Of a stretch of 64,000 nucleotides of DNA, positions 1,058-48,000 are shown piece after piece. Source of the DNA: Rhizaria sp. SCN 62-66 (lineage: Eukaryota); NCBI GenBank assembly GCA_001724265.1, contig MEDY01000045.1, forward strand, positions 1 through 64,000, written 5' to 3'. The notes beneath the pieces are model-generated. The model was not told the DNA's origin, did not search any database, and saw only the letters and a list, made by a program, of their open reading frames with translations. The translations under genes and the position numbers were made by a program. Positions within the stretch are counted from its first letter, which is position 1. Each line of letters starts with the position of its first letter.

Positions 1058-3394
1058 TTACTGCGTGAAGCTCGGCAACAGCGGTGCGGCAGGCACGAGT
1101 TGGTTTGAATCAATAGGTTTCGGCATCAGAATCGCCGCTGCAACTTCACCAGGACTGTTGCGCGCCGCATCATCAACAACGCCTTCAGCACCCACACGAA
1201 CAACGAGTTGTTCTTGCTGCGTAGGCGGTGGCATGGCGCCAAGCTGCGAGCGCGACTGCGGCATCAGTGCCGCCGGCCCAGTCTCGAGCTGCTGCGCATG
1301 CACAAGCGACGCCAGAGTCGGTGTCATGAACCCCACGCTACCCGTGCCGCTCAGAGAGCTGCTTCTACCGCTACCGGGCGCTGGGTTTATGTTCTTGACT
1401 CTAAGCCCCAGTCCAAGGCCGAGTCCAAGCGCGTGGCGGCCGCCAAAGTTGGGGTTGTGTTCGTGCTTCTGATCGATGGTGTAACCGTTGTTGATAAGCA
1501 ACGGCGACTGTTGCAACACATCGTCACTATCGATACCGCTGCTTGAGCTGTTGATCTTGTTGTTCTGGTTCGCGTTCGGATCATCGTCGAACATACCATG
1601 AGCGGACTCCGGGATCACGCGCATCTCCCTCACCTGTCTCCCGCTGTTGTCCATACTCACAGGCGCGTGCGCACTGGTGGTCGAGACAGAGCCACCACCA
1701 ACTGTGACGGAGGTGCTCGGGGCTTCACTGAGCGGACGCGGCGAGGTCACCAGTGGCGGCGAGAAGATGAGCGTGCCGACCGGGCCTGCGTCAGTCACTG
1801 TGCCCGCGGCAGCAGCAGCGGCAACGGTGACGGGCGAGTAATAGCGACGGGGACTGTGGCTGCGGCCCTGTCCTTGTGGAGCTGTGGTTGAGTGACTGTG
1901 CGCAGAGGGAGACTGACTGTGAGCAACTGGAGACGCGTGGCCGTGAGCTGACTTGCTCCCACTAGCGCTTCTAGACTGACTGTGACTGCGGATGTGGCCA
2001 TGGACCTCAGACTGGGCGTGAGCAGCAGGGTGAGTGTGGCTGTGAGGAGTGGCAACATCATCAGAAGCAGAGTGAGTGTGAACACCCTAGTTGAGGCGGG
2101 CGACTGACACTACGACCGGCAAAGGAGCAGGTGCAGGAGCCAAAACAGAGGCGAGCGCAGGCATTGCCACCGGGGCCGTGAGCATCGGAGAAGGAGCATG
2201 AGGGAGTGTTGTCATCGACGCATGAATTTGCGGCAACTGTCCAGTCCGTTGCTGTTGTTGCTGTTGATACGAGGCCAGATACGACGAGACTTGAGCTTGT
2301 GTCTGCGCAAAGCGAGCGAGAGTTGCAGAACTCAACAGGCCGCTTGCATTGGTTGCAGCATTCGATGTCGCAGGAGCAGAAGCAGCGGGCGAGGCAACAG
2401 GCGAGGCGTATTGAAAAGTTGGCTGCGAGACTTGCTGTGAAGCAGGTGTGAGAGATACAGCGCTAATCTGCTGCTGCTGCTGCTGAGGTAATGCACGTGA
2501 TTGCGCAGCGGCAGATTGTGGTGACGAGAAGTTGGGGTACGGGTAGTGCAGCTCACTGTCAACAGCAGCATTACCACTGATACTTCCTCCGCGTTGCACG
2601 TTAAGTGTCGCCTGCTGATGCTGCTGGAGTTGCAGCTGGTGCTGCTGCAGGAGCTGCTGCTGTTGTTGCTGTTGCTGCAACAGCAACTGCTGCTGTTGCA
2701 TCAAGAACTGTTGCTGCTGCTGTTGCTGCAGCTGCGACAGCGACTGTGACAGACTCGTTGTCGCCTCATCACGGTACGAGAACGCAAACGCATTGTCACC
2801 AACAGGGGGTGAGAAGAGCGTTGACGGAGACAGGAAACCGCCGGGATTAGTCGAAACACTGTGAGAAGTACTCCGAACACCTCCACTTGCACCTACAGCA
2901 TTAGGAGCAGAAGCAGCCGTGTTTGCATTGCGCACAGAAGTGCCTATAGAAAGCGCACCCATAGTGCCGGCAGTCCCCTGCAACACCGCCGCTGCGGCCG
3001 CTGCCATCGAGGCAGAGCCCACAGGCGCAGCGGCGGCAACAGCCTCAGCTGCAGCCTTGTCGGCCGCAGCAGCTGCAGCGCCTGCCTGATAGGCCAATGC
3101 ACGCTCTGCAAGGGAGCTTGCGCGAGGCCGCACGTTGGCTTGAATGTAGGTGGCGTCCGCGGTTGGGAGGCATCTTTTCTCTTGGCCTGTTAGAGGCTTG
3201 CGGGGTGAAGCTTCCGACATAGATGCAGCGGACACAACAGGAGCAGGTGCGGGAGCAGGAGCTGCGACAGTCGCAGCGGCACCACCAGCTCCCGAAGAAG
3301 CAGCAGGTGCAAACGCGTGCGATGCGACACCATGCGGCTGCGCAGTTGTGCTCAGCATCGCTCCAAGCGCCGGCGACTGCGAATTAGACTGTGC

Positions 3395-3427
<33 letters not shown>

Positions 3428-3428
3428 T

Positions 3429-3461
<33 letters not shown>

Positions 3462-10193: not shown

Positions 10194-13100
10194 ATGTCTT
10201 CTTCCAGGAAGCGATCTAACCATCATCCGGGCCCGGCTGCAGCTCTTCAACCACCGCGTATTGCTTCCCCCGTTGCCGGCACGAGCGAGCTTGAGCCTTC
10301 TCGGCTGGAGACCGAGTTACCCGCCTCCCCCCACCCCACTCCCGCCGTCATCGCAAGGGCTGCACCGCAAGGTGCTTACCGCAACAAGACCGCTATGCCG
10401 CCACACCCTGCCTTGAAAGGCGCCGTCTCTGATGCCCGCACATCTGCCCCCAATACATCTGGCGGCTTGAGTGCGGTCTCAGAGCGCGCCGACGGCGAGG
10501 GCAGTGACAAGGACGTCTCTGGCGCTGCTGATGACGACGAGAAGGAGCATCTGCCCGCGAGCCCCCACCCCCGCGTCCACGCCGCTCCCCACGCCATTAA
10601 CACCGTCGATAGCAGCGCAACCGCGCACGGCAGTGACAGCGGCAGCGGGGGCAAGTACGAGCCGGGCGCCGGTCTGCGGTACCCGGCGCCGCACTCGCCG
10701 CAGCAGCAGCCGCGCACGCCCCGCGAGCAGCTGCCCTCGGCGCAGGACGCGGCCCACAGCCAGCTCGGCCTCGCGGGCGGCGTCGGTGCGGGCACTAAGG
10801 CGCCTAAGCACGTGCCGCTGCCACCCTCGGCGGCGGGCGCTGCTCACGGTCACTTCGACGGAAAGAAAACCGCCTTTAACCCCAGCACGAGCGCTGGCGC
10901 TAACTACAACGCCGGCATCGCTCATATCGCTGCTAACAAGAGCGGCATTGGCAGCGTGAGCGGGTACGACAAGGCTGTTGCGCACTTGCCCCAGACTCCT
11001 GAGACGCCCGTGATCACGCCGTTTACCGAAGGCGAGCTCTCGAACAACAACAACAACAATAATACCAGTGGCAGCGAAAACAAGGCCGCTCTTATCGGCG
11101 CTCGTCATAGCCTCAGCGCTGGCTCTGATAAGGCCCAGGCTCAGACGCAGGAGCAGGGACACAATCGCGGCAGCGACACCCGCTTCGACAGCAGTCCGAT
11201 CAAGCCTGCGCCCCCGCCCTACTCGCTCAGCGACGACTCTAGCACTCGCGCAAGCAAGAGCGCCAGCACAGGCAACGCGCCGAGCACGCATACTGGCAAT
11301 GACAGTGCTGTTGATAAGGTCACAACGCAGCTCAACAGCATCAAAAACGATGTTTTGCGCCGTGTCAACGAGCTGGACAACACTCTGCGTTCGTTCAACA
11401 TCAACAGCACAAATGCTGCTAACCCCCAACAGCCGCAGCAGCAACAACAGCCGCTGCAGCAACAACAGCCGCCGCAGCAACAACAGCCGCCGCAGCAGCA
11501 GCCGCCGCAGCAGCAGTATGGCACCGGTGGTATTCTCTCGACCCTGGGCTCCATCGCTGCAGGCACACTGGCGAGTTCTTTTGCGGCCGGCGCGCAGCAG
11601 CAGCAGCAGCGCTTTGACCAGCAGGGCGACCAGTCTGGCCAGCAGCAACAGCCGCAGCAGCAGGGCCAGTACAGCGGCGCGGCGGTGTCCGCCCTGACGG
11701 CCATGGCCGAGGCCACCGCCCGGCAGCACATCTCCAACGCGCGCTCTACGGTTGAGCAGTCACTGCGGAAGTTAAGCCGCGCCGTGCTCGCACAGACCGA
11801 CAAGCTCGAGGACTACACGCGCGCCGCCGAGTCGCGCGCCGCCACCGCGGTCGGCGGCGTCATTGGCGGCCTGACTTCCGCGGCCGCGAGCCAGGGCGCG
11901 GCGGCCGCGGGCGCGGTCCGCAGCGCGGCCGGCACGCTTTCGCGCTACGCCGAGGCCGCCAACACGGCCATCAGCAGCGGCGGCGGCCAGATCGGCGGGG
12001 GCGGCGTGGGCGGTGGCATTGCGGGCGCTGCAATGCGCGCGCTGCTGCCCGAGGCGGCGTCAAACGCGGCCTCCGCGGCGGTGCAGGGCGCCGACGCCGC
12101 CGTGGGCCGCGTGACTCGCGCGATGGGCGAGGTCGCCGCCGCGGTGGGCGCTGCCAAGGAGCGCGTTGAGGCTGTCCGCGGCGCGCTGCGGCAGGGCGTA
12201 AGGGATACGCGCGACGGCAGCCCGCTCCCCGTAGCCCGCGGCAACGTTGGCATTGACGCCAGCATGAACGCGGGCGCTCACGCGCCCGCAGCGAACATGA
12301 GTGACCCGCACGATATCAGCGCGAACGATAGTAACATTGAGCAGGCGGATCGTGACGGTGGGGGCAACAACTACCGTAGCGCTGTCCAGGAGAGTCCCCC
12401 TGGTGGCTACAGCGATTTCGCTCGTCACGCGCCTCGTCATGACTCAAACCAGGACTACGGTGCAATTGCACCCAGTGGCAGCAGCGCAGTGCCGATGTCG
12501 CAGTTGCCGCAGTCTACGTACCGGTATGACAGTGACCCTGACTCGATCCGCGACGCGCAGTCACACATTCTGCGCGCGGACGATGACAACGTCCGCGCGG
12601 ACATCAACAACAGCTACAGTAGCGGGGGTGCTCATCGTCACCAACAGCAGCAATACGGCCAGCAGCAGCAATACGGCCAGCAGCAGCAATACGGCCAGCA
12701 GCAGCAACAGCAACAGCAGCCGGATCAAGGCGAGCAACGCACCGCGCGTCATTTGATGTCATCGCTGTCTCAGCAGCAGCAACAGCAGCAGAGCGGCGGC
12801 GGTGGTCTGCTCGCGTCACTTGCCTCAGGGCTCACATCGTTCCTGACCGGCACTAACGCAAACACGCAGCAGCAACATCCCCAGCAGCAGCAGCAACAGC
12901 AGCAGTACGACGCCAATTATGAGCACCGCTACGGCAGCCGCAGCAGCGACCCAAACACCGTCAGCGGCAGCGTCGAGAGCCTAGGGGCCGCCGCGTCCAG
13001 TCTGTGGGGCTCGCTGCGCAACGCTCGCGACTCGATTCTGGGCATCGGCGAGCACGCATACAGCGGTGACCTAGCCGCGGCCGCGAACATGACGCCCGAG

Positions 13101-16100
13101 GAGGAGGCCAACTGCCGGGACCCGCAGCTGCTGCATGTGCGCCGCAACGCGGTCGGCAGCGACCAGCCGCGCGCTCGCGGCGACGCGGGCAAGGACAAGC
13201 GCAAGACCGCCGCAAACGAGCAGCAGCAACAACAGCAGCAACAGCAGCTGCAACAGCAGCAGCGCGAGCGTGAGCAGCAGGAGCAGAGGCAGCGGCAGCA
13301 GCAGCAAGCGCCGGGAGCGCTCGCCCGCGGAACGCCGTCCGCCACTGAGGCTGCCGAGCGCGCCGCAGTTGCCGGCCGTGCTGCGCCTTCGACTGCATCT
13401 CCACAGGTTGCTAAGCAGCTGGCGCAGCAACAGCAGCAGCAGGCGCAGGCAAGCGCGCGCATTTCTGGCGCCAGTGCTACCGATGCTCGCGTTAGTACGC
13501 GCGCAAGCGAGAGTGCTAAGCGTGCTCGAGGTGTGCCTGGCTATGACAATAACGGCGCTCTTGCTGCCAACGGCAAGCAACAGCAACCTCTTCAGCCTCA
13601 GCAGTCCCAGCCTCAACAGCAACAACAACAGCAGCCTCAGCAGCAGCAACAGCAACAGCAAGGCCTTGATGCGTTTGATCGTATCGCCCGCGAGGAGTCC
13701 TTTACCGCTGCTGCGGGTGCCCGCCAGCACGCGCACGCCCACGCGCACATTGCAAAGGCGCAGGCTACGCCTGCAAGTGCCGACGCCGCTAGTGCTCGTG
13801 CTCAGAGCAGCGCTGCGGCGCCGCGCCTGTCGGACCCCGACCGCGACGTGCACGACACGCATCGCGACGAGGACGTGCTAAAGGCGCTCTGGGACGAAGA
13901 AGTCGCGCGCGACATGCAGGAGGCCATGGCGCGGGTGCCAACGCGCGCGCTCGGCGCCGCAGTGCCCGCCGAGCAGCCGCACATCAAGACGACAATTGTC
14001 AAGGTCAGCGAGTCGACCGCCGCCAAGCCCAGAGCGGCTGCCGGCGGTGATCAAGGCCAGATCGGCCGCGACACTGCGGCTGCAGCGGGCGCCTTAAGTC
14101 CCACGAGCATGCACGCACGCGGCCGCAGCCACGCCGAGCGCAGTCCGCCGCAGGTGCAGCTCGAGCAAGAAAAGCAGCAGCGCCAGCGCGAGCCGACTCC
14201 GCTCTCGATATCGGCCACGGCTCCCGCCACTGACGTCAGCGGCGGCGCCGCCGCGGGCGCGAGTCGCGTTTTTAGCGCGATTCCTGCCGAGAGCCCATCG
14301 ACGGACGCCGAGGTGCGCACGGCACACCACTCGCATCAACACCAGTACCGCGAGCGCGACCTTTCCCGCGAGCGCCAACGGTGGAAGATGATCCAGGATG
14401 CGATACGCACGCGCGAGCTAATGGCCCGCATTAACGGCAGCAGTGCGGACGCGCAGCCGTACGATCCGGCGGCCGTGCCTGTCACTGAGTACTCGCTTCC
14501 AGCTGATATGCCACCGAGCAGTATCAGCAGCACCAGTAGCGCCATAAAGCCCAAGGCGGCGGCCACTGCTGATGCCGCTAAAGCAAGTCACGCTCAGCCC
14601 TCAACTGCTGCTGCTGCGCCGCATGGCAGCTCTATTTGTCTCGACAAGGCTGCAGCTGTTGCTCCGAAGTCTCAAGACGTCAGCGTAGACAAGGCAAAGG
14701 CTGCTGCTGTCCCTGCCACCGGCATCACAGGAGCTGGTGTGAGCGCAAGTGACGGTGCGGCACGCGTGCTGCCGTTTTTCAAGAGTACCCTCGAAGTGAT
14801 TGAGCCTCGCACTGGCGCGCAGGCACAACCGCAGGCTCAGCCTCAGCCACAGTCTCAGGCACAGCCCCAGGCGCAGGCGCAACCTCAGCAGCAGCAACCG
14901 CAGCAAGCGCAAACGCAGACACAGCCATTTTCCTCTGCGCAGGCACCAAAGCCTGTTACAGTTGACGCCGCGCACACTAAGCCTGCTGGTGACGCTGCTA
15001 TGCCTGATATTGCTTCTGCTGCTGGCGCTGAGTCTAAGCCTGCCTTTGACATCGGCCTTCCCACTGGCGGCGTCGCGGCCGGCGCTAGCACCGGCGCGGG
15101 CGCGCGTCTCCGCGCAGCTACTAGTCACGCGTACGACACTGTGACGGACAGCGGCTACAACTACGGCTGCTACTGGAATCAGCCTGCCACGCAGCCGCAG
15201 TCAGAGCCTCGGATTGAGCCACAACAGCAGCAGCCACAGCCGTCGCAACAGACCCAGCCTCGGCCTCAGCCACAGCCGCAGTCCGCAGCAATGACGCAGA
15301 CTCAGCCCCAGGCCCCTGCACAGGCTCCATCCTTTGCGCCCTCGCAGACTCAAGCCCCTGCGCCGAAGGCTGCGGTTTACCCGAAGGTGCCTGCAACTGT
15401 GCCGGGCCAAGCGCCGACTTCTCAAACTCAGTCACAGAGCAAGGCGCCCGCACAGGTTCAGACTCCGGCTCATCCGCAGACACAAACGCAGCCCTCGACG
15501 GCACCTATGCAGCCGCCGCCGCAGCAGCAGCAGTCCCAGCCCCAGCCACAGCCCCAGTCTCAGTCCCAGCCCCAGCCCCAGTCTCAGCCCCCGTCTCAGC
15601 CCCAGTCTCAGCTCCCGTCTCAGCCCCAGTTTCAGCCCCCGTCTCAGTCTCAGTCTCAGCCCCAGTCTCAGTCTCAGCCCCCGGCTGCTGGCGTTGGGCA
15701 GATGCAGGACCAGTCCGACCAGGCTAGCGGCCGCGTTCTCGGCGACAACGGCGCTCGCGCGCACAGCAAGAGCGGCGGCGGCGGAAACGACAACTTAGGC
15801 AACACCGGCAGCATTGCGCAGTCGCCAGCCCAGCCTCAGGGCCAGCAGTCGCAGGGCTTCCCCGGCACTGGTTCTGAGCCCGAGCCCACCGGCAGCACGA
15901 AGAGCGCCGGCGCTATGAGCTCCAAGCCCGCTGCTGCCGGCACTGCAGCCAGCAGTGGTGCTGCTGGCGCTAGCAGCTCGAGCCCCAAGGCTAAGCCTGG
16001 CTCTCAGGCCGACGCTGGCGCAAGCACTAGTGCTTCAAAGAGCCCGCCTGGCGCTGGCACCGGTGCAGGCGCCGGCGCGAGCGCTCAAGATGGCGCGGGC

Positions 16101-19100
16101 GCGAGCACTGGCGGCGGCGGCGGTAGTGCTGCGAGCGGCGGGTTCGGAGAGGCAGCGAGCACCGTCACCGAGCCGTTGCCGCTGGACTCGCCCGCAGCGC
16201 ATAGCCACACTGCGGCAAGCCACCACGACGCGCCGGGCGTGCCGTACACACAACACAAGGTGTACTCGCGCACTGAGCTGCCGCAGTCAGAGCGCCGGCC
16301 GGACCAAAGCCGCAGCACAGCCGAGTTCCGGCTCGCCTCGGCCGCGGCCGCGAGTCCGGTGCGCACAGGCCCGCGGAGCAAGAGCGACAAGGACGGCGAG
16401 AAGCAGGAGGCCGCCGTGCACGCAAACGTGGTGAGCCGGGGCAAGCGCGAGCAGGCTGAGTTTGAGCGCGAGCGGCAGAAGCTGCTGCTGCAGCAACAGC
16501 AGCAGCAGGCGCAAGAGGGTGCAAGCGAGGAGGACCGTGAGCGCGAGCGGGAAGGTGACCAGGTGAAGGCAAAGGCCGGCGGCGAAAAGCCTGAGCGCGG
16601 GTACACCTACGTGTGCAGGATGCCTGACACGCAGTCGCAGCCGGAGCCCGCCCCATCGTCGAAGCACAAGCACACCGACTCGCTCTCGGAGGCGCACGCC
16701 CGCTCGCACTCGCTCTCACAGTCGCGCACGCGCGCCGTCGACACCACGCCGCTGCCCGCAATCGCGCAGCCGCACCCCGCGCTGGCCCCCAGCAGCTTCA
16801 GCAACCTGCCCGAGGCGCCGCAGACGCTGCCGCCCATGCGCCCGCCGGGCCAGGAAGCACTCGCGGCTGACCCCGCGCTGACGCGCAAGCGCTCTGCGTC
16901 CCCCGCCAGTCGCGGCCACGGGCGCAGCGGCAGCGACGACGGCGCGCTGGAGAGCGCCGGCGGCGACGGCAAGCTGCAGCGCGAGCGCCGCCAGCCCGGC
17001 GACTCGGCGCCCGTGGGCGAAGGCGTGCGCAACAGCATCAACGCGCAGGCGGCTGCGCTGGCGGCGGCGCGCGCGGAGGGCCGGCGCGCGGATGTGGCCG
17101 GGGCCATCGAGGAGCGCGAGCAGCGCAGGAAGGAGGCGTGCGCCGAGGGCACTGAAGCCGCGAAGAAGCTCGTGCCAAAGTTAAGCCGCTTCAACGCAGA
17201 GTACAACAAGAGCACCCTGGACCGTGACGACGCCACAGCTGCTGGTGCTGATGCGGCTCCGTGTGAGGGTGAGGAGGGCGCTGAGCAGCGCGAGCGCAGC
17301 GCGGCGCGCGGCGTGAGTACGTCCGACAGCAGCCAACAGTACGACGATGACCACGACGAGGACGAGGACAGCGGCACAATTAGCGACACGGACGAGAGCG
17401 ACAGCGGCACGAGTCGCAAGGACTCCGCGCTGCGCAAGCGCGCCCGCGACGCCGCGACCACGGCCTCCACCAAGATCGCGAAGCCCCGCAGCAGTCAGCG
17501 ACCGGCGCAGTCGGAGACAGAACGCCTGCAGGCCAGCGGCGCAAGCGGGCTGCCCGCGGACGCCGTGCCGTTTCCCTACCGGTCCTACTTTAGCAGCCCG
17601 CACCCGCGCAGCGAGGACTATAATAGCAGCACGATGGGCTGCCCGTCACCGACCGTAGCGCAGGGCGGCAGCATCGAGTCGCTCTCGGCGTCCTCGCTGT
17701 CGGCGCCGCGCTCGACATTCATCGGCTCTGCGTCCAACGCCGTGGCGAGCGCGGCGGGCACCGTGGGCGCGGTAAAGCCGCAGGTGGCGTTGTACGGCAC
17801 GCGGCAGCCGAGCCTCGAGCTGGAGAAGGAGCTCGCCGCGATGCGAGTCGCTCAGGCCAAAGCCGGCGCAGGCGACGGGAAAGGCGGCATGAGCGACCTA
17901 GAGCCGCAGGACAAGAAGCCCGACGCGTACGACGTCAACTGCCAGGAGTGGACTCAGCCGCTCAAGACTCCGCTCGGCGCCGCTGATGCTGCGGCGCATC
18001 ACTTGACTCCTGCGAGCAAGGCTGCTACGCAGAAGCAGCAGCCTAAGCGCGGTGAGGCCAAGGAGGAGGAGGAAGAAGGCATCGTGAGCAAGGTGTGGCA
18101 CGCGATGAGCGACTTCGCTAGCGGCTTTATCAGCGTCTCCAAGACTGCGACGGGCAACCTCGGCGCCGACGACCTCCACAACATCGCTGCACACAGGGAG
18201 AAGTCCCTCGGCGACGCCGACGCTGCTGCGCCCCGCGACGACGCAAAGGACGGCGAGCGCGAGCAGCAGCGCTCTCGCCCTTACACGATGAGCGACGAGA
18301 GCGGCAGCGCTGTTGAAGCTGCGAAGGCCTTTGTGATCAAGCCGCCCTCCGCCAGCACAAGCCACGCACTGCTGACCCAAGCCCTGCTGTCGCCAACCGA
18401 GACGCGCCAGCTCCAGCGCCAGCGCAGCGGCCCCAGCAGCGGCCTCAGCAGCAGCTCCAGCGGCTCTAACATCAACCGCTCTCCCTCGCGGCCGCAGTCG
18501 CGCTCTCAGCTCGCCAGCGCGACCGCGCAGTCGGCCCCCGTCGCCGAGGGCCGCGGCGCCAGTCTAGCACCCGCTGCGGCCACGCACGTGCCGCCGACTG
18601 TCACGCGCAACGTCGTGCCCGGCACGGCAGCGCCGCCGGCGGCGAGCCTCGAGCGCAGGCCGGCGGTGAGCCCCCGGGACAGGCGCGGTGAGGTCGCGCA
18701 GCTGGCTGCGCTTGGCCGAAGTAACGCTGACGCTGACGCCGACGCTCGTGCTGGCAGTGCGATGAAGCATAGCAGCGCTGCTGCTCACAGTCGCCCTGCC
18801 CACGGCCACTCCGCAGCCCACGGCCAGCACGAGTACGCCGAGCACGACGAGGGCTACGAGCGCCTGCTGTCGCCGCCGCCGCGCACCGCTGCGCACAGCC
18901 ACCCTGCCAGTACTGCGCCGATTTCTGTTCCGAAGGTGGACTCGATGTCCGACCTCGTGACCGCAAGCAGCGACACCAGCATTGGCGCTGCTGGCATCGG
19001 TGGCGCAGGCATCAGTGGCGCCGCTGGTTTGACGCAGCTGCAGCGCTCGCCGACCGACCCGTACAGCGCGCCGCGCCCGCTCTCGACCACGCCTGCGCTG

Positions 19101-20738
19101 AGCACGCCGGCCGACCAGTCTAAGGGCTTTAGCCCGTCGATGGCCCCGGCTAAGGGCCCAGGGGCGAAGCACCCGGGTCCGGACTCGCGCATCATGGAGA
19201 GCGAGTTCTCCGGCCAGCGCGCCGCCGACGTCACCGCTGCCCCGCGCCGCAGCGACTTCAGTGTTAGCGGTATCGCGGACCCCATGAGTCGCGGTGTGAC
19301 GAAGCCTGGTGCGAGTGCGCAGGCAAAGGGCGAGGCCGAGTATCACAACTTGATATCACAGACGCAGGCGCAGCGTGATCCGGCCGCCCAGTAGCACCAG
19401 CAGCTGCAGCAGCAGCAAGGCAGCCAGAGCAAGGCCCCGGGGCAGAAGCAAGTAGAGTCCATGGTCGAGCGCGCCGACCAGAGCGACAGCAAGAACGAGA
19501 GCGAGGGTGAGAGCGAGAAGGAGGGCGTGAAGCGGTTCAAGACCAAGGACTCACCCGACACTGGCCGCGCGCGCCCCAATCCCTCCGGCGTGAACGCGAA
19601 TATCAACGCCAGCAGCGCTAAGAGCAACACTACTAGCACTGCGCCTCCGTTGGTGTTGCCCCCGCCTGCATTCAGCAACAACAACAACATCACTGGCGCC
19701 GGCCCTATCGTTAGCAACATCAAGCCTGGCGCAAGCACCACTCAGAGCCGCCGCGCTGCGGTCAGTGCGACTGCTGCCACCAAGGGCGTCGGCAGTGACG
19801 CTAGCAGCAGCAGTGACAGCAAGGACGAGGACGCGGACGAGGGCTTGGAGGGACCCGGCCTGAATCTAAGTACCCACCCCAACCACGGCCAGCCGACCGC
19901 CTTCATGCGCGGCCACTCCTCCGCCAACACTGGCCCTGGCGCGAGCCGTAACGGCAGTGCGCCTGCAGGTGGCGCCGCTGGCACCGGTGTCGACCCCCGC
20001 GCCGGCAGTGACGTCGTGCGCTTCACCGCGCAGCAGCACCCGCGCTCAATCGACCGGCTCCAAGCACATCAACAGCAGCGACGCCAGCAACAGCAGCCGC
20101 AGCAACAAGATCACGAGCAGCCGCAGCCGCAGCCGCCTCAGCAGCAGCAGTCTACTCAACCACAATCACAGGCACAGGCGCAGGCCCACGCGCAGCCGCA
20201 GCCGCAGGCGCAGGCTCACGCGCAGACTCTGACTCCCGCCACGCTCAGCGCGGCGCCCGGCGGCGCTGCGAGTGCTCACGGCGCTGCCGCCGCCGCCGAC
20301 AGGCCGGGCCACCACGCGGTGCAGCTGGGCCGGTTTGACCTGGCCGAGGGCATGGGGCCGCAGCCGCGCGCGTCGGTCGCCGCGCAGCTGCAGCACCAGC
20401 GCGAGCAGCAGCTCGGCGAGCAGCAGCAGCAACAGGCTCCTGCTCAGGTTCAGGCACAGCAGCAGCACTTTGGCGCTGGCGCTCCAGCACGTGGCCACGA
20501 CCGCAGTCACATGGCTGACCAAGAAGAAGAGGAGGAAGAGGAGGACGGGCGCAGGGACGACCGCGCTGACGCTCACTCGACAGACACCAAGACCCACACC
20601 AATGCTAAGAAGATCATCAATGGCAAGGTTCCCAGTAGTGCTGCAACAGGCACTGGCATCACGGAGGCCTCTGGCAAGGACGTCAGCGGAGGGGGACACG
20701 TTAGGCCCGGACACTTAGCAGGTACGCGCCGACCTTAA
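10194..20738 (+). CDS. Giant single-exon low-complexity (Gln/Ala/Ser/Pro-rich) hypothetical protein, ~3514 aa, with one internal TAG
   Basis: ORF 10194..19394 ends at TAG. 22 open codons (HQQLQQQQGSQSKAPGQKQVES) lead in frame into ORF 19461..20738, which ends TAA followed by AT-rich DNA. No domain recognised. Confidence 0.75.
12642..12695 (+). repeat. 18-bp tandem repeat x3 encoding QQQQYG
   Basis: ca(a/g)cagcagcaatacggc repeated three times. Confidence 0.85.
15530..15680 (+). repeat. Degenerate 12-bp coding repeat (SQPQ/SQPP units)
   Basis: Repeated tctcagccccag / tctcagcccccg units. Confidence 0.75.
19392..19394 (+). other. In-frame TAG codon, apparently sense, in a Gln-rich context (GCC CAG TAG CAC CAG CAG CTG CAG CAG)
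   Basis: Flanked by CAG codons; the frame stays open for a further 1344 nt. Confidence 0.85.
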
Positions 20739-21592
20739 CTTAATGTTAAGCTGCAGCCTAGTATAATGTAATGTTTTGTATGTTTAGTGGTGTATGCGTT
20801 GTTTCGAATCACGTAAAAAAGTAACATTGCGTTCGTGGCACAAGTTTCACGCACGCAGCAAACCTATAGCTGTGTATTTCAAGTCTTGTTCAACTGTAAT
20901 CCAGTAGATAGCTTCAACAGTGAAAGTTGCGCAGGGAAGACGTAACTAACACGTTGTAGGCTTGTAATACGAGCTAAACAATGTGAATGTTTAACAAATT
21001 TATAGAATTTAAACGACAACTTTTTAGTTGAACGTGTTTTCTAAATCAACGACGAAAAACACTGTTGTGATCCCGCATTGTAATTTGTGCTTTATTTGTA
21101 CTGTTACTGCTATTGTGATAACAAAAGCGAAATGGAAAGCAAATCACAAAACAACTTGCATACTCACGCACACACAGGTGTTATTTCGATTGATTCAAAT
21201 TGAAGAAGCATTTTATTAATACAAATGCTTTTAAGAAAAACGAGATATCTCTTGTGTGTGTCACTGAGTGCGTGTTAGTTTGTGCTTGTTACTCTAGCTT
21301 GCACTTGTTACTCACTCGGGCATAGCAGCATCAAAACGCACTGATAGTTACAGAGACTGCTTGTTGTGTTTGCTAACGTCTTCAAAATCAAATGTGTTTT
21401 TATAATCTTTGCGTGCCTTGAGTAGAATCAGACGCAACTACGTGTCAAGCTGTGCCTGTTCGCATTGTCATCCAGACCGAAGACCAGTCGGAGCTGTCCT
21501 CTGTATCAACAGCAACACCCGCGAGCTATCAGACTGAAAACTCGGCACTTGCAAGTGCAACCCCTGGTGATACTAATCTTGCAGGTTTAAGC

Positions 21593-24040
21593 ATGCGTTT
21601 CACAACATCAGCACGACAGCGCAGTGCACTGCAGAAGCCATCCCGTCTCTCGGCGCCCAACACAAATCACACCGTCAATAGTAACACAAATACAGATACT
21701 GCTGCTGCAAGCAAAGAGAAGCTGGCCCGCGCTAGTCTCTGGCAGTCGCCGCGTTTTATCACAACCGCGACAACCGCAGCCAGAGCAACCGGCCCCGCGG
21801 CGATGCTCGCCGCAGCCACTACAAATGCGACTCCAGCAGCGGCAGCAGCCGCGTTAGCAGGGGGTCATCTGAGTGTAACAGCACCAAAGCCTACTGCAAC
21901 TGTGGTTGCTTCCCCGTTAGCCGGAGTGACGCTGCCTCCTCCTCCGTGCCCTCCTGTTGTGACCAAGGCCGGTGCTACGAAGTTGAAAAGAACGAATGAC
22001 ACAACATCAGAGAAAGCATCGACAGGAGCAGCACGCGCAGTTAGTGCAGCTTCAGTGACTGCTGCAGATGCTAAAGCAGCAGTAAACAATGAATCATTGT
22101 CGTATGTTGCGGCGACAGCAACAGCAATTCCGGCGTTAACTGAGCTGCCGAGTGTAAGTGTCGATGAGACTACGTTCTTTAGCGTCGACGACAACAACCT
22201 CACAAGCAGCGAGGCGGTGAGCAGCGGAAATGATAGTAACGAGCTTGTGTTCCTGACTTCTGAGCGCGGCGTTGCATTCAATCTGCTCAGCGTCACGACC
22301 ACCAACGGCGACAGCGGCGTCGACAGCGCCGAGAGTTGTGACAGCAGCAGTGTCAGCGCTGTCAGGGTGTTAACGCGCGAGCTAGGTCCTTACACTCTCC
22401 GGAGCCCGACTCCAGGTAGCTTTGCGCGCGCTCACTCTCGTGGCCACTCCGCTCACGGGCACGATCATGGTCTTGCCCATCGTCACTTCAACAACAGCGG
22501 ATTCTCAGCTGTAACAAAGACCGAAAGTGCAAACGTACTTGATGGTGCTAGCGGCAGTAGCGAAGCCGTTCAAAGCACGGACCGCGAGATCAGCGGCAAC
22601 AACAGCAGCAATAGCAACATCAAAATTACGATTAGCATTAGTAATGTTCGTGCCAACGGCAACGACCATGGCGACATCAATGCGCTCGGCCACAGCCGCA
22701 GCGACCCCCACTCGTACACAGGCCGCTGCACAACAACGTCGCAGCGGCAGCAGCAACAGCAATTGCACTAGCAACAGCCGGGACAGTGTGTCGGACTACG
22801 GCATGGACGCTTCCGCTCGCAGTGCCTTCAAGTGCAACATTTGCCTCCGCACGTACATCACCATCACCGTTGTCATAATCGCCAAACCATCCAATCTCCT
22901 TCTCAGCATCAGCCTAATCAGCAAGAGCTCCGTCGTAACCAAGATCGCGAGCAAGAGCAAGCAATCACAGACGAACAGCAACTCGAGCACGAGTTAGAGC
23001 GGGCGCTAGACCAAGAGCTTGACCAGGAGCTCAGCTTCAACTTAGAAAAGGGCCTTGTGCTAGAGCAGGGCCAGGGTCTGCGGCTAATGTTAGGCCAACA
23101 GCGACAACAGCGACAACAAGAAGACCAGACGCAGAGGCAGCTGCAGCAGCAGGGCCAGCGGCACCAGAGGCCGCACCCGAGCGCAACCGCGGGAGTGAGC
23201 AACATCTGTCGTGCACTCGGCTGTGAAGGCGACTGCTTTATGTTTGATTATCCCACAACAACATCGACGACAACAACTGCGACGTTGACAGGAAACAGCA
23301 GCAGCACAAGCAGCCTCGGCGGCAGTCCTGCTTACAGTCCTCCTTACGAGCACACGGTCGCTCACGGCCATCATCTTGCCCACGGCCACGCCCACGAGCA
23401 CGTTCACGGCCACGGCCACGGCCCTTATTACATTCACACTCGCAATCTCGGCCACGGTCGCGGTCATGATGTTGCTGCGGTCGCTGCTCAGAGTCGCAGC
23501 CCTTACAGTGACACGCACGACAACGATGACGATGACGACATTGAAGTCGAGAACGCACAGAGGACAAATCGTCAACAGGTGGCTGATACCAACGCCAAGA
23601 ACAGCAGTATTAATCTCGAGAATGTTGACGCCAGTGGCGATGGTACTGCGCAGCGCCGCGGATCAGCTGGACGTCAACACAGCCAAAGCCAAAGCCACTT
23701 GTACTATCACAACGACAATGACAGAAATAATTACCACACAAACGCAGACACTGAGAGCAAGCCCGATGCCCTAAGTCACAGTGCTACCAACGCAAACAAA
23801 AGCATGAACACAACCTCTGACACTGAGGGTAACAATTGTAACGGCTCCCGAGGCGATCGCGTGACTCAGACTCAGGCCAAGACCCCGCCTCAGCACAGCC
23901 AGAGCTTCAGCTTCGGTGCAAAACGGTGTCATCACAGTGCTAGTGAGCACTGCGGCTGCAGCACTAGCGGCAGTGGCAGCAACAGTAGCGGGAGCAACGA
24001 CGAGGATAACGACGGCCACGGCAATGAAGACCATTCATGA
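21593..24040 (+). CDS. Low-complexity hypothetical protein (Ala/Thr/Ser, Gln and His tracts), ~815 aa, with one internal TAG
   Basis: First in-frame ATG at 21593. ORF 21452..22771 ends QRQQQQQLH-TAG, then 20 open codons join ORF 22832..24040 in frame; ends TGA. Confidence 0.65.
22769..22771 (+). other. In-frame TAG codon, apparently sense, in a Gln-rich context (QQQQQLH*QQPGQ)
   Basis: CAA TTG CAC TAG CAA CAG; the frame stays open to 24040. Confidence 0.8.
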
Positions 24041-24596
24041 GCGAAGCAGTGCGGCCGGACAAATGTAACACACAGATCTGTGATGATAGCTCGAGAGGTG
24101 AAATCAAGCTCAAACCATAGTTTGTGGCAGCTTAGACATCGATATAAGTGAGACGTAGAGTGGTATCAGTGAACATCTATTGCGATATGAGTCAGGGTCT
24201 CCTTGCTGCGACATGCCTTTGTGGCGGGAGCCGGGGGGTGCAGTGATGCGCGACGATTACGAAATGATGGTAAAAGCAAGGTGAGAAATAATAAGCTCAA
24301 CAATCCGACAATAAAACAAGCATTAATGAAGAATATCGTATTTTTAGTTGCGAACTCAAAGATTAGCAAGTGGTAGAGGCAATTTGGCATATTGCTGAGT
24401 GACTTGTGGCTGGATCGCAAACGGCTCGTTGGGTAACGGACTGAGCTTGAACAAATAGACCCTGTCAGGCCATACAGATCACATATTCACGGCTTCTTAA
24501 AACAAGTTCTTATATAATGTATTCTAAATTGTTTGTGATTTCAATATCTTGCTTACTGACGGATTCCCCTGCTCGCCTGTTCCATTTTAGCTCGCG

Positions 24597-27364: not shown

Positions 27365-29884
27365 TCAAAATTCACGACAATCAATATAGTATTGACAAAA
27401 AATTGACAGCGTTCCCGTTTGGGCACCAACGCTGCAGCTTTCCGCCTGACAGCGCGTCTCAAAGTACTGCAACACGGTGGCCTCAAAGGGTGCATCCTCA
27501 TAGTCCTGCAATGCAGCAGTCGTCCCTTCCACGCACGACATGACGCGGCCCACGGGCACTGCTCCACGCAACAGTCTTACGGGACAGGGCTTAAACACAA
27601 TAAACCAAGGCGTATCGGCCTGTCCTGCCGGGGTAACGGCGCGGGCATACATCAGCACTGTGCCGGCGGGGTACATCTCGGTCTTTTCAGGGGCAGTGCT
27701 CGCAGTCAGTGCTGGGTACTCACCAAAAACAATATCACTCTCGGGAAGCGATAAAGATACAGTGGCACAGGGAACCATGTCATTACACACGTACTGCGTG
27801 ACGAACGGCAGCGGCGACGCACGAGGTTGATCGGGAGGCACGAAACATGTGTGGACCCGGCTGCCCAAAGCGTTCCCATAGATCATCGTGCGGAAATAAG
27901 CGGCATTGCAAGGAAACCTATCATCATTAAAGCGAAGGACCAAGCTGAACGTCGTCTTCAGCTCCATATCGGCGTCGAAAAGCCTTGCCGTCAGCACCAT
28001 ATCTGACATCATGAGTTGAGCCTTGAGTTTCCCCCTTGCATAAACAAGAATGCGCTCGCGTGCCCTTGCTTGCAAGAGAGTCAGCGCCGCTGGAGACGGC
28101 ACACCGTTGACCCGAACGGAGGCAGGAAGTACCTCGAATGTCTAAGTGCCAAAGTGGAACGCAACCCGCCGTGGGTAGCCACACTCTACGAGGCAACACT
28201 CAATATGCTTGTCAAACACAGTTTGCCAGTCATTTTGCGACTGAACAAACTCGCGCGTCTCCACGACAGCTTGTAATCGCAACTTCTCTGTTGAGTCTGT
28301 ATCAGGCACAATCAAACCCATGCTGACAAGGAGAGTGCTTAGCTTCTTAAGCTCATGCAGCACCGGGTTGCGGTCATCAGCCTGCACACAGTCATCATAG
28401 CGTAGTAGCTCGAACGTTTGTAGCCCGCGGCATTCGATCAACTTGGCCACAAAGGGGTTCCGCGGCGTTTCACCGTTGCGGTCGGGTCCGACAGAGTCAG
28501 GCAGGGTGTCGCTGGTTGTAATCATCGTGCAAAGAAAATGCAATAGTTTAACGAGGGTATGTGGACTCAGACGCGGATTATAAGGCGTTCGTGCCTGATC
28601 ATGGTGCGACACAAGGAAATGTTTAAGGAATGTGCAGCAAGTATCGACAGCACCACAAGCAAGGAGCTGTTCCGCCGTGCTAACGCGCGTCACGTCAGAT
28701 GCTGAGCTTAATACTCTGTTAAATATCATGAGAGTATTGGTTGGCAGCGTGTGATAGCCAGTTAAACAATCGCCGCGAAAAAAGTCGACAATCGTGCTTA
28801 AGATGCGTGAGAATCCGGGTGAGCAAGAGAGCCGTTGAGAAAACTCAGGAAAATGAGTTGCCAATAAGGCGAGGAGGCACATGAACAAGTCTAAGGTCTC
28901 CATATTCCGAATTTCGTTTGAGTCAATGTACTGGAGAATACGACCAAGGCGATCAGCAGTAAACGCACATGTGAACGTGACATCATCAAAAAGGTAGACA
29001 AACGAAAGTAGTGACTACAGAGTCGTGAAATCTGATAGTTGCAACAACGGCTCAAAATGGTCGCTGATCGTGAATTCCGCAAGATCGCGGCGACGCTGCG
29101 CATCATCCGTCTCATTACCGCCTTCGGCACTGCCATCGCTGGCACTGGCGGTATCGCACTGAAACAAACTGTGCAGTGTAGAGTAGAGTGCAACGCGGAC
29201 GTATTTCCTGACCCCGAAAGACGGAAACCATCGCCGGACAATGCGAATCAGCATGGGAACAAAGCCAGAGACCGCGGAGTAAGGAAGCTGGGGCACAGCG
29301 ACTGACTCTATGGTGGTGCCAGAACGAAGTGCGATCAAAGCGTTGCCGAGATTGCGGTAGAAGTTAACATCATCAAAGACAACCCACGATGGGTTTTCGC
29401 GTCGTCGTTGTTCTACCTTGTACATAAATGACAGCACGTGATTCAGTGCAGCGTGCCTGACAGGTGAATCGACACTCGACTTGCGAGCAACAGTTGTCAC
29501 AATCTTCAAAATTGTGATCACCATATCTGCTTGCGGAAGATGAGACAGAGCAGCAGTAAGTGTCTCAACTGCGCCACACTTAGCGAGTACGTCACTACCG
29601 CCTGTAGACGAAGACACATCTTCAAACAAGTCGATAATAGCCTTAAGACGCTCAGCATCAATGTCGCCGGAAAGCACCAGCGACTGCAGAAGCAGCGTCA
29701 CGACCTCACTTTCGCCGAGGAGACCTACGTTTGGATGCGAACAAAAAGCGTGTTTAAGATCGGATATGGAGCTGGAATTTGCCGTCAGAGATACCACGCG
29801 ACTCACAGCGGCATATGTTTGAGTCTGCGCACGAGCGTCGAAAAGTTGCTGCCGACGCTCCAGTGCAGTGAGACGCTGTGCCAT
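27365..29884 (-). CDS. ~839 aa protein: helical (ARM/HEAT-like) region plus C-terminal degenerate cyclophilin-like domain; two internal TAG codons
   Basis: ORFs 29015..29884, 28142..28903 and 27365..28102 share one frame, separated only by TAG (29015-17, 28142-44) and stop-free linkers of 37 and 13 codons; ends TGA. C-terminus aligns by eye to cyclophilin motifs (LVLRFNDDRFPCNAAYFRTMIYG, IVFGE, AGTVLMY, WFIVFK, VPVGRV, YIDCREF). Confidence 0.7.
28142..28144 (-). other. In-frame TAG codon, apparently sense (FHFGT*TFEVLPASVRVNG)
   Basis: Joins two long ORFs in frame. Confidence 0.8.
29015..29017 (-). other. In-frame TAG codon, apparently sense (SDFTTL*SLLSFVYLFDD)
   Basis: Joins two long ORFs in frame. 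Confidence 0.8.
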
Positions 29885-30892
29885 TTGTGTGTGTCAACAC
29901 AGCGCTCGCTAATTGTGGGCGTATAGGTTGCAACTCGCAAGTGAAAAGGGTTTGGGGCCTTTGGGTCTCTCTTTTGTGGGTTGTGAGCAAAGTGGGTTGT
30001 GAGCAAAGATCTGCAAGCGGTGTGGGATTTGGTCTGCGAAGGCGAACCTCGTCCGCATCAAACACTTCAATCTGTGACGAACACAGTTCGTATCATCAAG
30101 AATAACAAGCGCTTAATTCAAAAATCGTCGATAAACTCCCATTGACGATCTAATTATGACATATTGTACACATATCACTGCGTTCTTCTGTGGGTGTACA
30201 AGTTGCCGGTCCCTTTCACCACAAAACGGTTCACCTTAGCCGATACAACGAATAACTCGATAATACCAATATCATCTCGACCGGGATTAACATATAATCT
30301 ATGCAATCATTGATTGTATCCATAAAGGCAAAACTCTTGGAGATAGATGTACAATGGACGCATATGCCACCGAGATATCTTCTAATCATCCTAGTCGATA
30401 GTGTGTGTGGTCAAAACAAAAGTGGTCACTGTCCAGGTGACTCTCGCGAACCGACCCGCTCGTTGGCGCAACATTCAAAGTGAAGTGCCTGGAACAAAGA
30501 GTCCGTTGTTAGGAGTACCTGTTTAACATGTTATTCTGTATACATGGTTGCATATGATACATAAATTATTTCGCCACCAGTCTTGTTGGTAACTCCTTTA
30601 GGGCAATGTACCGCGCCGACTGCGGAGTGCTTTTCTACCGCAGTTGACCTCGCGGATGCACCATCATTGACTGTCATTTATGGAGCTTAAGACGACTAAA
30701 TCCCCTTCAATAGCAACATAAACATCACAATGATCTTTAGATGGTGTATATACCTCCTAAATCACCACTAAGTTTACTGTATTCATCCTCCCGTCTCCCT
30801 TACCCTCCACCTGCAGCAGCTTCACCACTTTCTCTCGCGCCTCTTCAACCGCTGACAGCAAAGACCGTCACCAGCTCAACGACGCGTCCCCT

Positions 30893-37421: not shown

Positions 37422-38284
37422 GCTGCTGTTGCTGAGTGCGCGCGTGAGACACTGGCACGAGAGGGTGTGGATAAGAGGAGGTGCGGGCAAGCTGGGGTTA
37501 GCGCTGTCAGTAGTGCTGTCGGTGTTGTTGTTGCTGTCAGCGACGGCGACGGAGGCGCGGGACGGGCGGCAGAGCAGGGAGCCAAAGAAAGATGACGTCG
37601 AGGACGAAGGGGAGTGTTTGGGGCAAACTGGCAGCGAGGCGTGGTAAACAAACATACAAGCGGGATAACGCCCGTGTGTCTACCTTTGTGAACGGTCTAT
37701 GCAGGTGTCGAATGGGACAGCGCGGAATGGGAAGAAACACATGTCGGAGAAATTAGCAATGATGGGAAGCGGCGACGAAGAGTGTGAGGTGCATGTAACG
37801 TTTCCACTTATGACAGCCACATGAGGTCCATAACTGACGTCATGGGATCACGGTTAAAATGTTCAAAGACACAATCAAATTTACTATCACGATACACCAC
37901 GAACACGCCACTTTACGGTCAAGGGAGCGAGACAGTCCGACTTAAATAAAAATTTCATCGCTCTCACCACGAGCGAGCGAATGCAAACATGGTAACGGTG
38001 ATTTTTCGCGAACCGCCCCGACACAGCGACGCTTGCTTCTTGCTTGGGAGCCGTTATGAATGGCAGCCTTTTGAAGCGTGCATGATATGCCGTCAATTGT
38101 CCGACAAAGGAATATTCAGTTACATTTCCGGATACCACGCGTTAATTAGCTTGTGATATTTGTTTTCTATACCGTTAAAATACGCCTGTGGCTCTACAGC
38201 TTTAGTCTCACGAGACCCTCTTTGAATGTTCCCTCTGCAGCCTACCTACCCTTTCCAGCAGACTACACACATACCAACGACACC

Positions 38285-39721: not shown

Positions 39722-39755
<34 letters not shown>

Positions 39756-45043: not shown

Positions 45044-48000
45044 ATGTCCTCTTTCACGCCGCTCTCCGCTCTCGCACTCGCTGCCGCGTCAGCCCGTGGT
45101 GCCACGCCTGGGAACAAGCCCCCCGGCACGTTTGGTAACTCAGCCCCTGTTGGCCCCGGCACTACCGCTACTACCGTCGGCTCTACCGCCGTTACAGGCA
45201 CCGCCCCCGTTTCATCTCCCGCACTGGCGATGCCGCAAAGATACGCCCCCGCCTCCGCCGGCCTCGCCGCTGCGGGGCTCACCGCCTCCAGCAGCGGAGG
45301 TGTGGTTTCGACGGGCGAGCGCTCGCTGTCCACGGGCCTGGGGTCGCGCCCACCCGCGCTGCTCACGGCCGTAGGCTCCCGCCTCCCGGGCTCCGTCGCC
45401 GCCGCTCTCATGAGTCCCCCCGCCTCGGCCGCCGCTGGCAGCTCCACTACGACCACTCTGGCGCTGTCGTCCTCGGCATCCTCGTCCTCCGTCGGCTCCG
45501 CCCCCGGCTCCGCTCCCGGCTCCGCCCCCGGCTCTGCTCCAGGCTCCAACGCGCCCTCGACGCAGGTTTCGCTGTCGGATCACCACCCGCAGAGGCAGCA
45601 GATCTCGCCCCCCACGCACGCCCGCATGTCCCCCGCCTCATCCGCGCGCTCCTCGCTGCTCTCCGTCGCCGGCGCGCCCGCCGTCGGCGCGGGCGGCGCG
45701 CCCGCACTGGGCAGCACCCCGGCCGTGCCTCTGCTCTCCGGCCCCGGCTCATACCCCGGCGCCATTGGCGGCGCGGGCGCTGGCGCCGCCAATCCTGCGG
45801 CGTCCTCCTCGGCCACGTCGTCCGTCCTCGCCGCCGCCGCCGCCGCCGCTTCCGCCGCCGCCGCCGCCTCGCAAGCGCTCCAGCACCAGCAGCTGCAACA
45901 GCTGCAGTCGCCGTCGCCGGTGGTGCCGCAGCGCCGCGCGACCGACCCCGGCGCATTCGCGCATTCCCTCTTAGCGGGCGCGCTCGCGGCCACCGCGGCC
46001 AACGCGGCGCACACCAACGGCAACGGCAGCAACCTCGCGGCCGCCGGCCTGTCGGGCTCGAGCGCCGCCGTGACCGCACTCGCCCCCTCGCTGCAGCAGG
46101 GCGCGCTTTCCGCCAGCGGCTCCGGCTCCGGCTCAAGCTTCGGCGCAGGCGCGGGCGCGGGCGCGGGCGCTCTCGCCGCCGGCGGCGCTAACGCCGCGGC
46201 GGCCACCGCCCGCGGCGCGCGCGGCGGCCCCAGCGACGCGGGCAACCGGATCCAGATGACCGAGTTTGTGCCGCCGCCGCCCGACGCGCGCGTATGCTAC
46301 ATCTGCAAGCAGCCGCCGAAGCGCCCGACGGATACGTACCGCATTCAGCACCCGCTCGACATCCAGCGCTGCTTCGGGCTGCCCATCGTGCCGCCCGTGC
46401 TGGGCCGCATCTGCGCGCGCCACTACCACCTGCTGCGTCTGCACCAGTACGACCGGTCCAAGGTTTTCCCCTTCGAGCACTGCCGCTCGCCCACCGACCG
46501 CAAGCGCGTCGCGTGCCAGGTGCGTCTCGTCGTGATCATACGACAACAGCCTATGAGCTGTTTTTAGTCTTGTTTTGAGATATAGTTTAACGATGCTTTA
46601 TGAATGAAAAAGATTATTCATATCGTTTTCAAATTGATCGAATATTGTATCTTATATCATTTCATTTGTTCCTTCCCCTTTCGCTCTCTGTTCACCACCC
46701 ATCTAGGCCGTGGCTGCGCCGGCCGCGACCGGCGACGGCCACAGCGTCGCCGTGGGCGCCGTGAGCGCCGCCCCCGGCTCCGGTCAGCACTTTTCCCCCG
46801 TGCCGGGCCCGCGCGGCGCGCCCGTGGTGACTGACAGCACGGGCGCGCCCATCACGAGCATCGTGCTGCCCTCGGACGCGGCCCCCGCGACGCCGCTCAC
46901 GGGGCTGAACCCCGATGGAACGCCCATGACGGACGAGGACTTCGGCGTCAACGCGCGCGGCACGGCGCGGCGCAGCCAGCCTGCGCTGGCGCAGAACGCG
47001 CTGCTGGGCCAGGGCTACGTGGGCCGCGGCGGGACCTATAGAGCCGCGCTGGCGCTGGCGCAGGAGCGTAAGCGGCGCCAGGAGGAGACGGCCGTCGGCA
47101 TGGAGCGCACGCGCGGCATGTCCGACGCGGCGCGGGCTAAGCGCGCCGCGCAAACGGCCGCTGCGCACGCGGCGGCCCACGCCGCGGCGCGCGCCAGGGC
47201 CACTTCCGCCGGCTCGGCCGCCAGCGCCGCCAATGCCAGCGCGGCAGCCGCGGCGGCTGCGGCTGCGGCCGAGGCACAGGCCCAGGCGCAGGTGCAGGCG
47301 CAGGCTTTCAAGGCGTTCGGCGCGGACGCGCTGTCGGCGTACGCCGCGGCCGCGGGGCTGGGCCTGCCGTACGGCCCCGCGGCCGGGCTGCTCTCGGCCG
47401 CCGCGGCCGCCAACGGCAACCCGCTTGGGCTACTGCTGTCGGCTATGGCGTCGTCTACGGCCGCGGGCGCCGCGGGCGCGGGCGGCGATCTGGCCGTCAG
47501 AGCCGCGCAGGCGCAGGCGCAGCTGATGCAGATGCAGCAGCTGGCGACTCTGCAGCAGCTGCAGGCACAGATGGCACAGGCCGCCGCGGTACAGGCGCAG
47601 GTCGCCAAGGTGCAGCAGGCGCAGCAGCTCCAACAGCAGCAACAGCAGCAGCAGCAGCAGATCCCCAACACCGCCGCGCTGCTGCAGGCGCCGTCGCCGC
47701 TGCAGAACGCCCGAGTCTCCGCCCTGGGTCCCCACACGCTCACTGCCCTCGGCGGCACTGCGCTGGGCGGCTCTGGCACCGGCTCACTGCCCTCGGCCCT
47801 CGGCGCTGGCTCCGCCTCTGGGTTCCGCAACTGCAGCACTGGCGCTGCCCCTGGCGCTCCCGCCGGCACTGGCTCTGCCGGCGGGAGCGCTGGCGGCGGC
47901 GGCGCGGGCGGCGGCAGCGCGGGCGGCGCGACCGAGTCGGTGGCGAGCATGGCGCAGGCGCTGTCGGGGCTGTTGCCGGTGCAACAGCAGGCGTGGCTGA

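Follow-up and report, generated by a model that had tools for sequence, protein, structure and literature searches.

Does the TAG codon at position 19392 of contig MEDY01000045.1, which lies in frame within a CAG-rich run of a long open reading frame (ORF), end a protein or encode an amino acid, and if it is read, as which residue? The question is raised by positions 1 to 64,000 of the forward strand of this contig (Rhizaria sp. SCN 62-66, GenBank assembly GCA_001724265.1), a 64,000-nucleotide stretch that we call the window, and for which an earlier note, made from the sequence alone, had proposed that UAG means glutamine (Gln) by way of a synonymous CAG-to-TAG change. The run on which that proposal was built, GCC CAG TAG CAC CAG CAG CTG CAG CAG CAG CAA, is exact at 19386-19418. 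Our analysis finds the translation of TAG within genes of the window to be well supported, and Gln to be the single most likely meaning, at a probability of roughly 0.6; the poly-Gln argument itself, however, carries little weight, given that CAG supplies 46% of the mutational input and that context prefers Gln only 2.5- to 4-fold.

The 19392 TAG is in the same frame as a long ORF that opens at 10176 and has its first ATG at 10194 (gene A; Table 1), the product of which is of low complexity and rich in Gln, alanine, serine and proline, the gene nonetheless showing strong codon bias, with a GC content at third codon positions (GC3) of 0.76. The 447 codons that follow the TAG contain no in-frame stop, the other five frames hold 7-22, and none of 20000 shuffles of this post-TAG stretch was free of stops. 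GC at codon positions 1/2/3 is 0.68/0.61/0.81 before the TAG and 0.72/0.54/0.76 after it, and collapses directly past 20736, to 0.37/0.35/0.38 beyond the gene's TAA. A codon-usage log-odds score, trained on 11492 codons from segments without an in-frame TAG (gene A upstream of the TAG included), was best in the gene's frame in 8/9 fifty-codon windows after the TAG, and across 19200-19680 frame-0 codon usage came out on top in every 20-codon window. A separate gene starting downstream is implausible, since the next in-frame ATG lies 23 codons past the TAG, inside uninterrupted coding signal. With TAG taken as a sense codon, these results suggest that the codon at 19392 is one ordinary residue of a Gln-rich protein of 3514 residues. 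A Pfam scan of gene A found no family, and a search with its last 1200 residues against 1.84 billion representative proteins gave no match but the window's own fragment of this ORF, so that this particular TAG cannot be aligned to anything.

Alignment across a TAG is available in gene C, which carries two of them on the minus strand. Its 13 homologues, which range from 461 to 1469 amino acids in length and share 28-45% identity with it by BLASTP, form an alignment that passes both TAGs, with one residue for each TAG and conserved blocks on either side, and the most conserved domain of the protein lies downstream of both (invariant columns 416-800). A residue is present in 12/13 homologues at column 365 (G G Q T Q F E L D D G E) and in 11/13 at column 774 (D D Q R E H H Q G S D, two homologues being gapped); the latter column adjoins an indel-prone loop and shifts slightly once six shorter fragments join the alignment. 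The family is small, its 13 full-length and 6 partial relatives all being records of ENA, Logan, JGI or MGnify, with annotated proteomes contributing none, and its C-terminal block (...FKPCP..LLRGAVPVGRV) is strongly conserved. Searches by similar and by shorter length found no relative of gene C above 47% identity besides the window's own three fragments, the shorter-length search returning these fragments and the six partial homologues, at 41-47% identity. The Pfam scan of gene C gave no match, and the best match of its family profile to PDB sequences was no better than E = 0.15.

After exon merging, the 15 gene ends of the window comprise eight TAA, seven TGA and no TAG, and neither TAA nor TGA occurs in frame within the 14857 annotated codons. 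The sole apparent TAG terminator of the window falls inside the intron at 46520-46706, and 0/15 genes are therefore TAG-ended, an outcome with a p of about 0.013 if the TAG share of stop codons is assumed to be 25%, the sample being small. TAG is thus not used as a terminator in the window, and UAA and UGA still terminate. It is the conjunction of continued coding after 19392, homologues that span the TAGs of gene C and the absence of TAG ends that leads us to regard TAG as a sense codon. The ORF fragments of the window that end at TAGs are listed in a protein collection, where they are seen on 1 to 6 contigs.

The codon is used sparingly. TAG makes up 5 of the 14857 codons (about 0.3 per 1000), against 739 CAG and 194 CAA, and is present only in the four genes of weak codon bias, where GC3 is 0.54-0.76 (other segments, 0.72-0.91); calculated from the codon totals, the chance of the TAGs falling in weakly biased genes in this way is about 0.04. 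The TAG-bearing genes also have the highest share of CAA among their Gln codons, 18-48% as against 0-17% elsewhere in the window. This rarity and confinement to weakly biased genes fit a poorly decoded or recently gained sense codon, and are silent on the amino acid.

As to the amino acid, the tRNAs that are one anticodon change away from CUA are those for Gln, glutamate (Glu), lysine (Lys), leucine (Leu), serine (Ser), tryptophan (Trp) and tyrosine (Tyr), and among these seven the window favours Gln or Glu. We scored gene C's two TAG columns only, on a maximum-likelihood tree (LG+F+G4), as the probability of the homologue residues given each query residue. The homologues are not independent and sit on long branches (the tree has the shape of a star, its terminal branches measuring 0.64-1.63 substitutions per site), for which reason the tree likelihood was used instead of the BLOSUM62 column sum; a 36-bit rejection of Leu by that sum was accordingly replaced, and shrinks to about 100-fold. 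Gln is the best of the 20 residues, and relative to it the likelihoods are 0.84 for aspartate (Asp), 0.72 for Glu, 0.44 for asparagine, 0.40 for histidine, 0.20 for Lys, 0.19 for Ser, 0.024 for Tyr, 0.010 for Leu and 0.008 for Trp, so that Leu, Tyr and Trp are disfavoured, being 40- to 125-fold less likely than Gln. Their BLOSUM62 column sums are -30 bits for Leu, -18.5 for Tyr and -29 for Trp, with Ser at -1 and Lys at -6. Pooled over both columns, the 23 residues are four Q, five D, four G, three E, two H and one each of L, F, T, R and S, and the hydrophobic fraction is 0.17 at column 365 and 0.00 at column 774; in gene C as a whole, columns with at most 17% hydrophobics hold 5% of its 73 Leu, compared with 87% of its 23 Gln and 81% of its 27 Glu. 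The earlier note had named alignment of TAG mainly to Leu, Glu, Tyr or Trp columns as evidence that would speak against Gln: Leu, Tyr and Trp fit poorly, whereas Glu, at a likelihood of 0.72, is not separated from Gln. Its statement that no TAG lies in a recognisably conserved column was borne out, both alignable columns being variable and the C-terminal part of gene A having no detectable homologue.

The sequence around the 19392 TAG points in the same direction as the columns. Gln occupies 4/10 of its flanking residues, a context equalled or exceeded in Gln content by 204/386 of the Gln residues of gene A and by 13/146 Leu, 12/162 Glu, 5/48 Tyr and 2/116 Lys. The context likelihood at this site alone favours Gln 6- to 7-fold, and over the four secure sites the advantage of Gln is 2.9-fold relative to Leu, 3.8-fold relative to Glu and 2.5-fold relative to Tyr. 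A likelihood over all five TAGs, in which Gln stood 20-fold over Leu or Glu, was set aside, the TAG at 22769 being probably out of frame and CAG mutation confounding the comparison.

A number of observations weigh against reading TAG as a sense codon for Gln. Its frequency is far below the level of a freely used synonym, and the decoder is unseen, ARAGORN having found no tRNA gene and Rfam no match in the 64 kilobases (kb). That 5/5 in-frame stops are TAG is not significant taken alone, random nonsense mutation yielding TAG in 68-71% of cases (p about 0.14-0.18). With regard to Gln in particular, CAG is the commonest codon from which a single mutation leads to TAG in these genes, with 46% of such changes, so that a TAG in a CAG run is expected whatever TAG encodes, if the tract tolerates substitutions; the other three secure TAGs lie outside Gln-rich contexts, and that in the pantothenate kinase gene is in a context less typical of Gln (77/175). 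The poly-Gln context is therefore weak, mutation-confounded evidence, though it points the right way. The alignment offers only two columns, both variable and one beside an indel, with long-branch homologues, and in these columns Gln, Glu and Asp are not separable: the BLOSUM62 sums are 10 bits for Asp, 9 for Glu and 6.5 for Gln, and the unconditioned tree posterior over the seven one-step candidates is 0.52 for Glu and 0.24 for Gln.

It is from these last figures that the case for Glu is made, in which UAG would be read by a tRNA-Glu(CUA) derived from tRNA-Glu(CUC), and the TAG in the Gln run would be a tolerated Gln-to-Glu change from CAG. The BLOSUM62 sum (9.0 vs 6.5 bits) and the unconditioned posterior both lean to Glu, the two columns hold three Glu and five Asp among 23 residues, and a stop-to-Glu precedent is described for Blastocrithidia nonstop (PMC12153298). 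Conditioning on the query residue, however, places Glu at 0.72 relative to Gln, context over the four secure sites prefers Gln, and 0/5 TAGs fall in a Glu- or Asp-rich run, though gene A has such runs; the precedent, moreover, reassigns UAA too, whereas here TAA ends 8/15 genes and is never in frame. We regard Glu as unlikely, yet as an alternative that deserves to be carried along with Gln. Leu, the meaning that UAG has in the rhizarian exLh and in a single clade of phyllopharyngean ciliates, is very improbable here. Reassignment of UAG alone to Leu has those precedents (PMC5304391, PMC11687900), and the earlier note was right that Leu interrupts Gln runs in gene A and is found in equally Gln-rich contexts there; its view that Leu could not be excluded on that account loses most of its force with a likelihood of 0.010 over the two aligned columns, which contain a single Leu and a single phenylalanine and are so poor in hydrophobics that few of gene C's Leu lie in comparable ones. 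The probability left over from Gln, Glu and Leu goes, approximately, to readthrough without true reassignment, to errors or editing, and to unprecedented meanings.

Under the first of these, there would be no reassignment at all: the TAGs would be leaky stops with low-efficiency near-cognate readthrough, giving truncated and extended proteins, or UAG would be effectively unassigned. The low frequency of TAG and its confinement to four weakly biased genes agree with such a state, which we nonetheless judge improbable. No gene among the 15 is TAG-ended; two TAGs stand in the middle of the conserved gene C protein with its most conserved domain beyond both, so that little functional product would be expected; and the codons 3' of the five TAGs (CAC CAG, CAA CAG, GGT GTT, ACA TTC and TCA CTA) differ, share no stimulatory context and in no instance fit the CAR-YYA type of readthrough motif. 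A slightly smaller probability is given to the TAGs being real premature stops or errors, whether in pseudogenes, through base-call errors, or with U-to-C RNA editing that restores CAG. Random nonsense mutation would mostly give TAG (68-71%), 46% of it from CAG, and the frame anomaly of gene B, described below, could be an assembly indel. This explanation needs four or five nonsense codons in 4/15 genes, while the coding signal is undiminished after each secure TAG, the homologues of gene C are conserved downstream of its TAGs, TAG terminators are absent, and the TAG-ended ORF fragments are listed on 1 to 6 contigs in the protein collection.

If UAG is indeed read as Gln, it would have dropped out of the set of stops and become a sense codon, with UAA and UGA left to terminate; the decoder would probably be a tRNA-Gln whose anticodon, CUA, differs by one mutation from that of tRNA-Gln(CUG); eRF1 would no longer recognise UAG well; and the 19392 TAG may have arisen as a silent CAG-to-TAG transition. 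As a precedent on the side of Gln, tRNA-Gln is described as also mediating near-cognate readthrough in standard-code organisms (PMC13192750). No eRF1 gene turned up in the Pfam scans of the window genes; of the stop-recognition motifs of this factor, GTS is taken up for Iotanema in PMC9161772.

The earlier note counted five in-frame TAGs, and all are real at the level of ORFs (plus strand, 19392 and 22769; minus strand, 2084, 28139 and 29012), but only four are secure. At the 2084 TAG, fine windows place frame 0 best on either side, and GC drops only beyond the TAA at 1058; the protein encoded by this gene has about 2620 residues, its Fumble domain being flanked on both the N- and the C-terminal side by very long stretches of low complexity, in which there is a run of over 20 Gln. 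The TAG at 22769 in gene B is the doubtful one. Between about 22700 and 22970 the codon score reaches +0.45 in the +1 frame and falls as low as -1.04 in the ORF frame, GC3 is 0.70-0.85 in the former and 0.35-0.65 in the latter, and the +1 frame reads ACT AGC at this point, so that this "poly-Q" TAG is probably outside the true frame. The best frame of gene B switches from that of the ORF to +1 near the CAG run and the TAG at 22769, and back near 22990; the +1 frame meets a TAG at 22995-22997, and both frames are open between the switches. This anomaly could reflect a pair of indels in the assembly, an orphan gene in decay, or frameshifting where the TAG stands. TAGs in the ORFs at 24528-25040, 30761-31336, 33182-34615, 35454-37847, 38226-40067, 45038-46603, 46638-50699 and 58833-60692 were dismissed, as they are located in introns or untranslated flanks and not in exons.

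The window is nuclear DNA with GC-rich exons (GC3 0.54-0.91) and short, AT-rich spliceosomal introns of about 130-190 nucleotides, in which the donor is GTACG(T) or GTGCGT and a pyrimidine tract precedes the YAG acceptor; several in-frame "stops" of naive ORFs are intronic. At the intron that removes the apparent TAG terminator, exon 1 stops after a complete codon, and exon 2 starts in phase. Both strands carry genes, among them, by Pfam, those for pantothenate kinase (Fumble), IFT38/Cluap1, an F-box protein and a protein with C2 and histidine-phosphatase domains; the presence of IFT38/Cluap1 implies that the organism has cilia. Among the matches listed for the helicase exon, the nearest relative is a metagenome protein at 79% identity, and the others, at 58% or less, come from many supergroups. 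Long GC-rich genes and introns of 130-190 nucleotides do not look ciliate-like, and several introns together with genes on both strands are unlike trypanosomatids. Upstream of the Rab-type GTPase gene, 50700-54390 (plus strand) is a T-rich region of about 3.6 kb with GC of 0.45-0.53, an AT skew of about -0.3 and no convincing ORF. The multi-pass membrane proteins encoded at 55992-58226 and 62647-63999 (both minus strand) have a common motif, YYVY.SNC.P.T (10/16 identical, E = 4e-4 in a single comparison), and may, judging from this motif, be distant paralogues.

Table 1. Features of the 64,000-nucleotide window that are referred to in the text, in order of position.
Feature	Position	Strand	Remarks
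Pantothenate kinase (Fumble) gene	1058-8923	-	Pfam; TAA at 1058
In-frame TAG	2084..2086	-	Within low-complexity C-terminal tail of pantothenate kinase (Fumble) gene
Gene A	10194..20738	+	About 3514 codons with TAG as sense; TAA end at 20736-20738
CAG-rich run around TAG	19386..19418	+	Reads A Q (TAG) H Q Q L Q Q Q Q
In-frame TAG	19392-19394	+	Codon 3067 counted from ATG 10194
Gene A continuation after TAG	19395..20735	+	447 codons
Gene B	21422-24040	+	Carries doubtful TAG 22769
Fifth TAG	22769..22771	+	Adjoins Gln run; doubtful as in-frame codon
Intron, leucine-rich-repeat gene	25821-25958		
Gene C	27365..29884	-	839-residue protein, two in-frame TAGs, TGA end
Gene C TAG, residue 581	28139..28141	-	Column 774 of alignment A1
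Gene C TAG, residue 290	29012..29014	-	Column 365 of alignment A1
Introns, DEAH helicase	31242-31401; 32852-32983; 33141-33292		
Intron GTGCGT...TCTAG	46520..46706	+	Joins ORF 45038-46519 to 46707-50699 as one gene
Rab-type GTPase gene	54397-55023	+	

Stop-to-sense reassignment of UAG alone is a kind of system already known. What may be new is the lineage: we propose tentatively, and at somewhat less than even odds, that the window comes from a GC-rich lineage not yet reported as code-deviant, in which UAG has been withdrawn from termination and is at an early, sparsely used stage in weakly biased genes. In a lineage so rich in GC, the loss of UAG terminators could not be put down to AT mutation pressure. 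If the reassignment is true, it would be among very few non-ciliate cases involving UAG alone, and if the residue were Glu, UAG as Glu with UAA and UGA as stops would be a combination not found in the literature surveyed. [quoted passage not shown] There are practical consequences as well. Under the standard code, any annotation of this genome leaves genes truncated or split, as seen in the window proteins that are listed as fragments ending at TAGs, and the inserted amino acid decides the predicted sequence of every TAG-bearing protein. Beyond what the earlier note contained, the present analysis adds evidence against Leu and shows that Glu keeps a place beside Gln.

The literature searched contained no report of a GC-rich, intron-bearing, ciliated organism with reassignment of UAG alone, and the systems that come closest each resemble the window in part. 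Amoebophrya sp. ex Karlodinium was considered as a matching code and rejected, as it is described as AT-rich with all three stops in frame (PMC12005148). Blastocrithidia nonstop, in which stops are reported to have become Glu codons with UAA changed too, resembles the window as a non-ciliate flagellate with in-frame stop codons and as a precedent for Glu; unlike in the UAR = Glu codes (Blastocrithidia and the peritrich type), TAA and TGA are here never in frame and end all 15 genes, and the several introns of the window and its genes on either strand set it apart from trypanosomatids. The phyllopharyngean ciliates Hartmannula sinica and Trochilia petrani, for which UAG is putatively Gln and UAA the preferred stop (PMC11687900), share with the window a reassignment of UAG only and the retention of UAA as a stop, but reassigned UAG is reported as widespread in them, as opposed to about 0.3 per 1000 codons here. 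The same likeness holds for the rhizarian exLh (PMC5304391) and an uncultivated phyllopharyngean clade (PMC11687900), in both of which UAG is given as Leu; in contrast to these, the aligned TAG columns of the window are hydrophilic, and Leu is about 100-fold below Gln. The system to which the window is most readily compared with Gln as the meaning is that of the fornicate Iotanema spirale, which is described as having UAG as Gln and UAA and UGA as stops (PMC5304391, PMC9161772). The assignment in Iotanema is reported to rest on many conserved alignment positions from a transcriptome, as against two variable columns here, and the window, in which exons are GC-rich and introns are of the conventional type that contains a polypyrimidine tract, has nothing that ties it to fornicates. 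In both, however, UAG alone is found in frame and is scarce, UAA and UGA terminate, and the expected decoder would have the anticodon CUA, one mutation away from that of tRNA-Gln(CUG).

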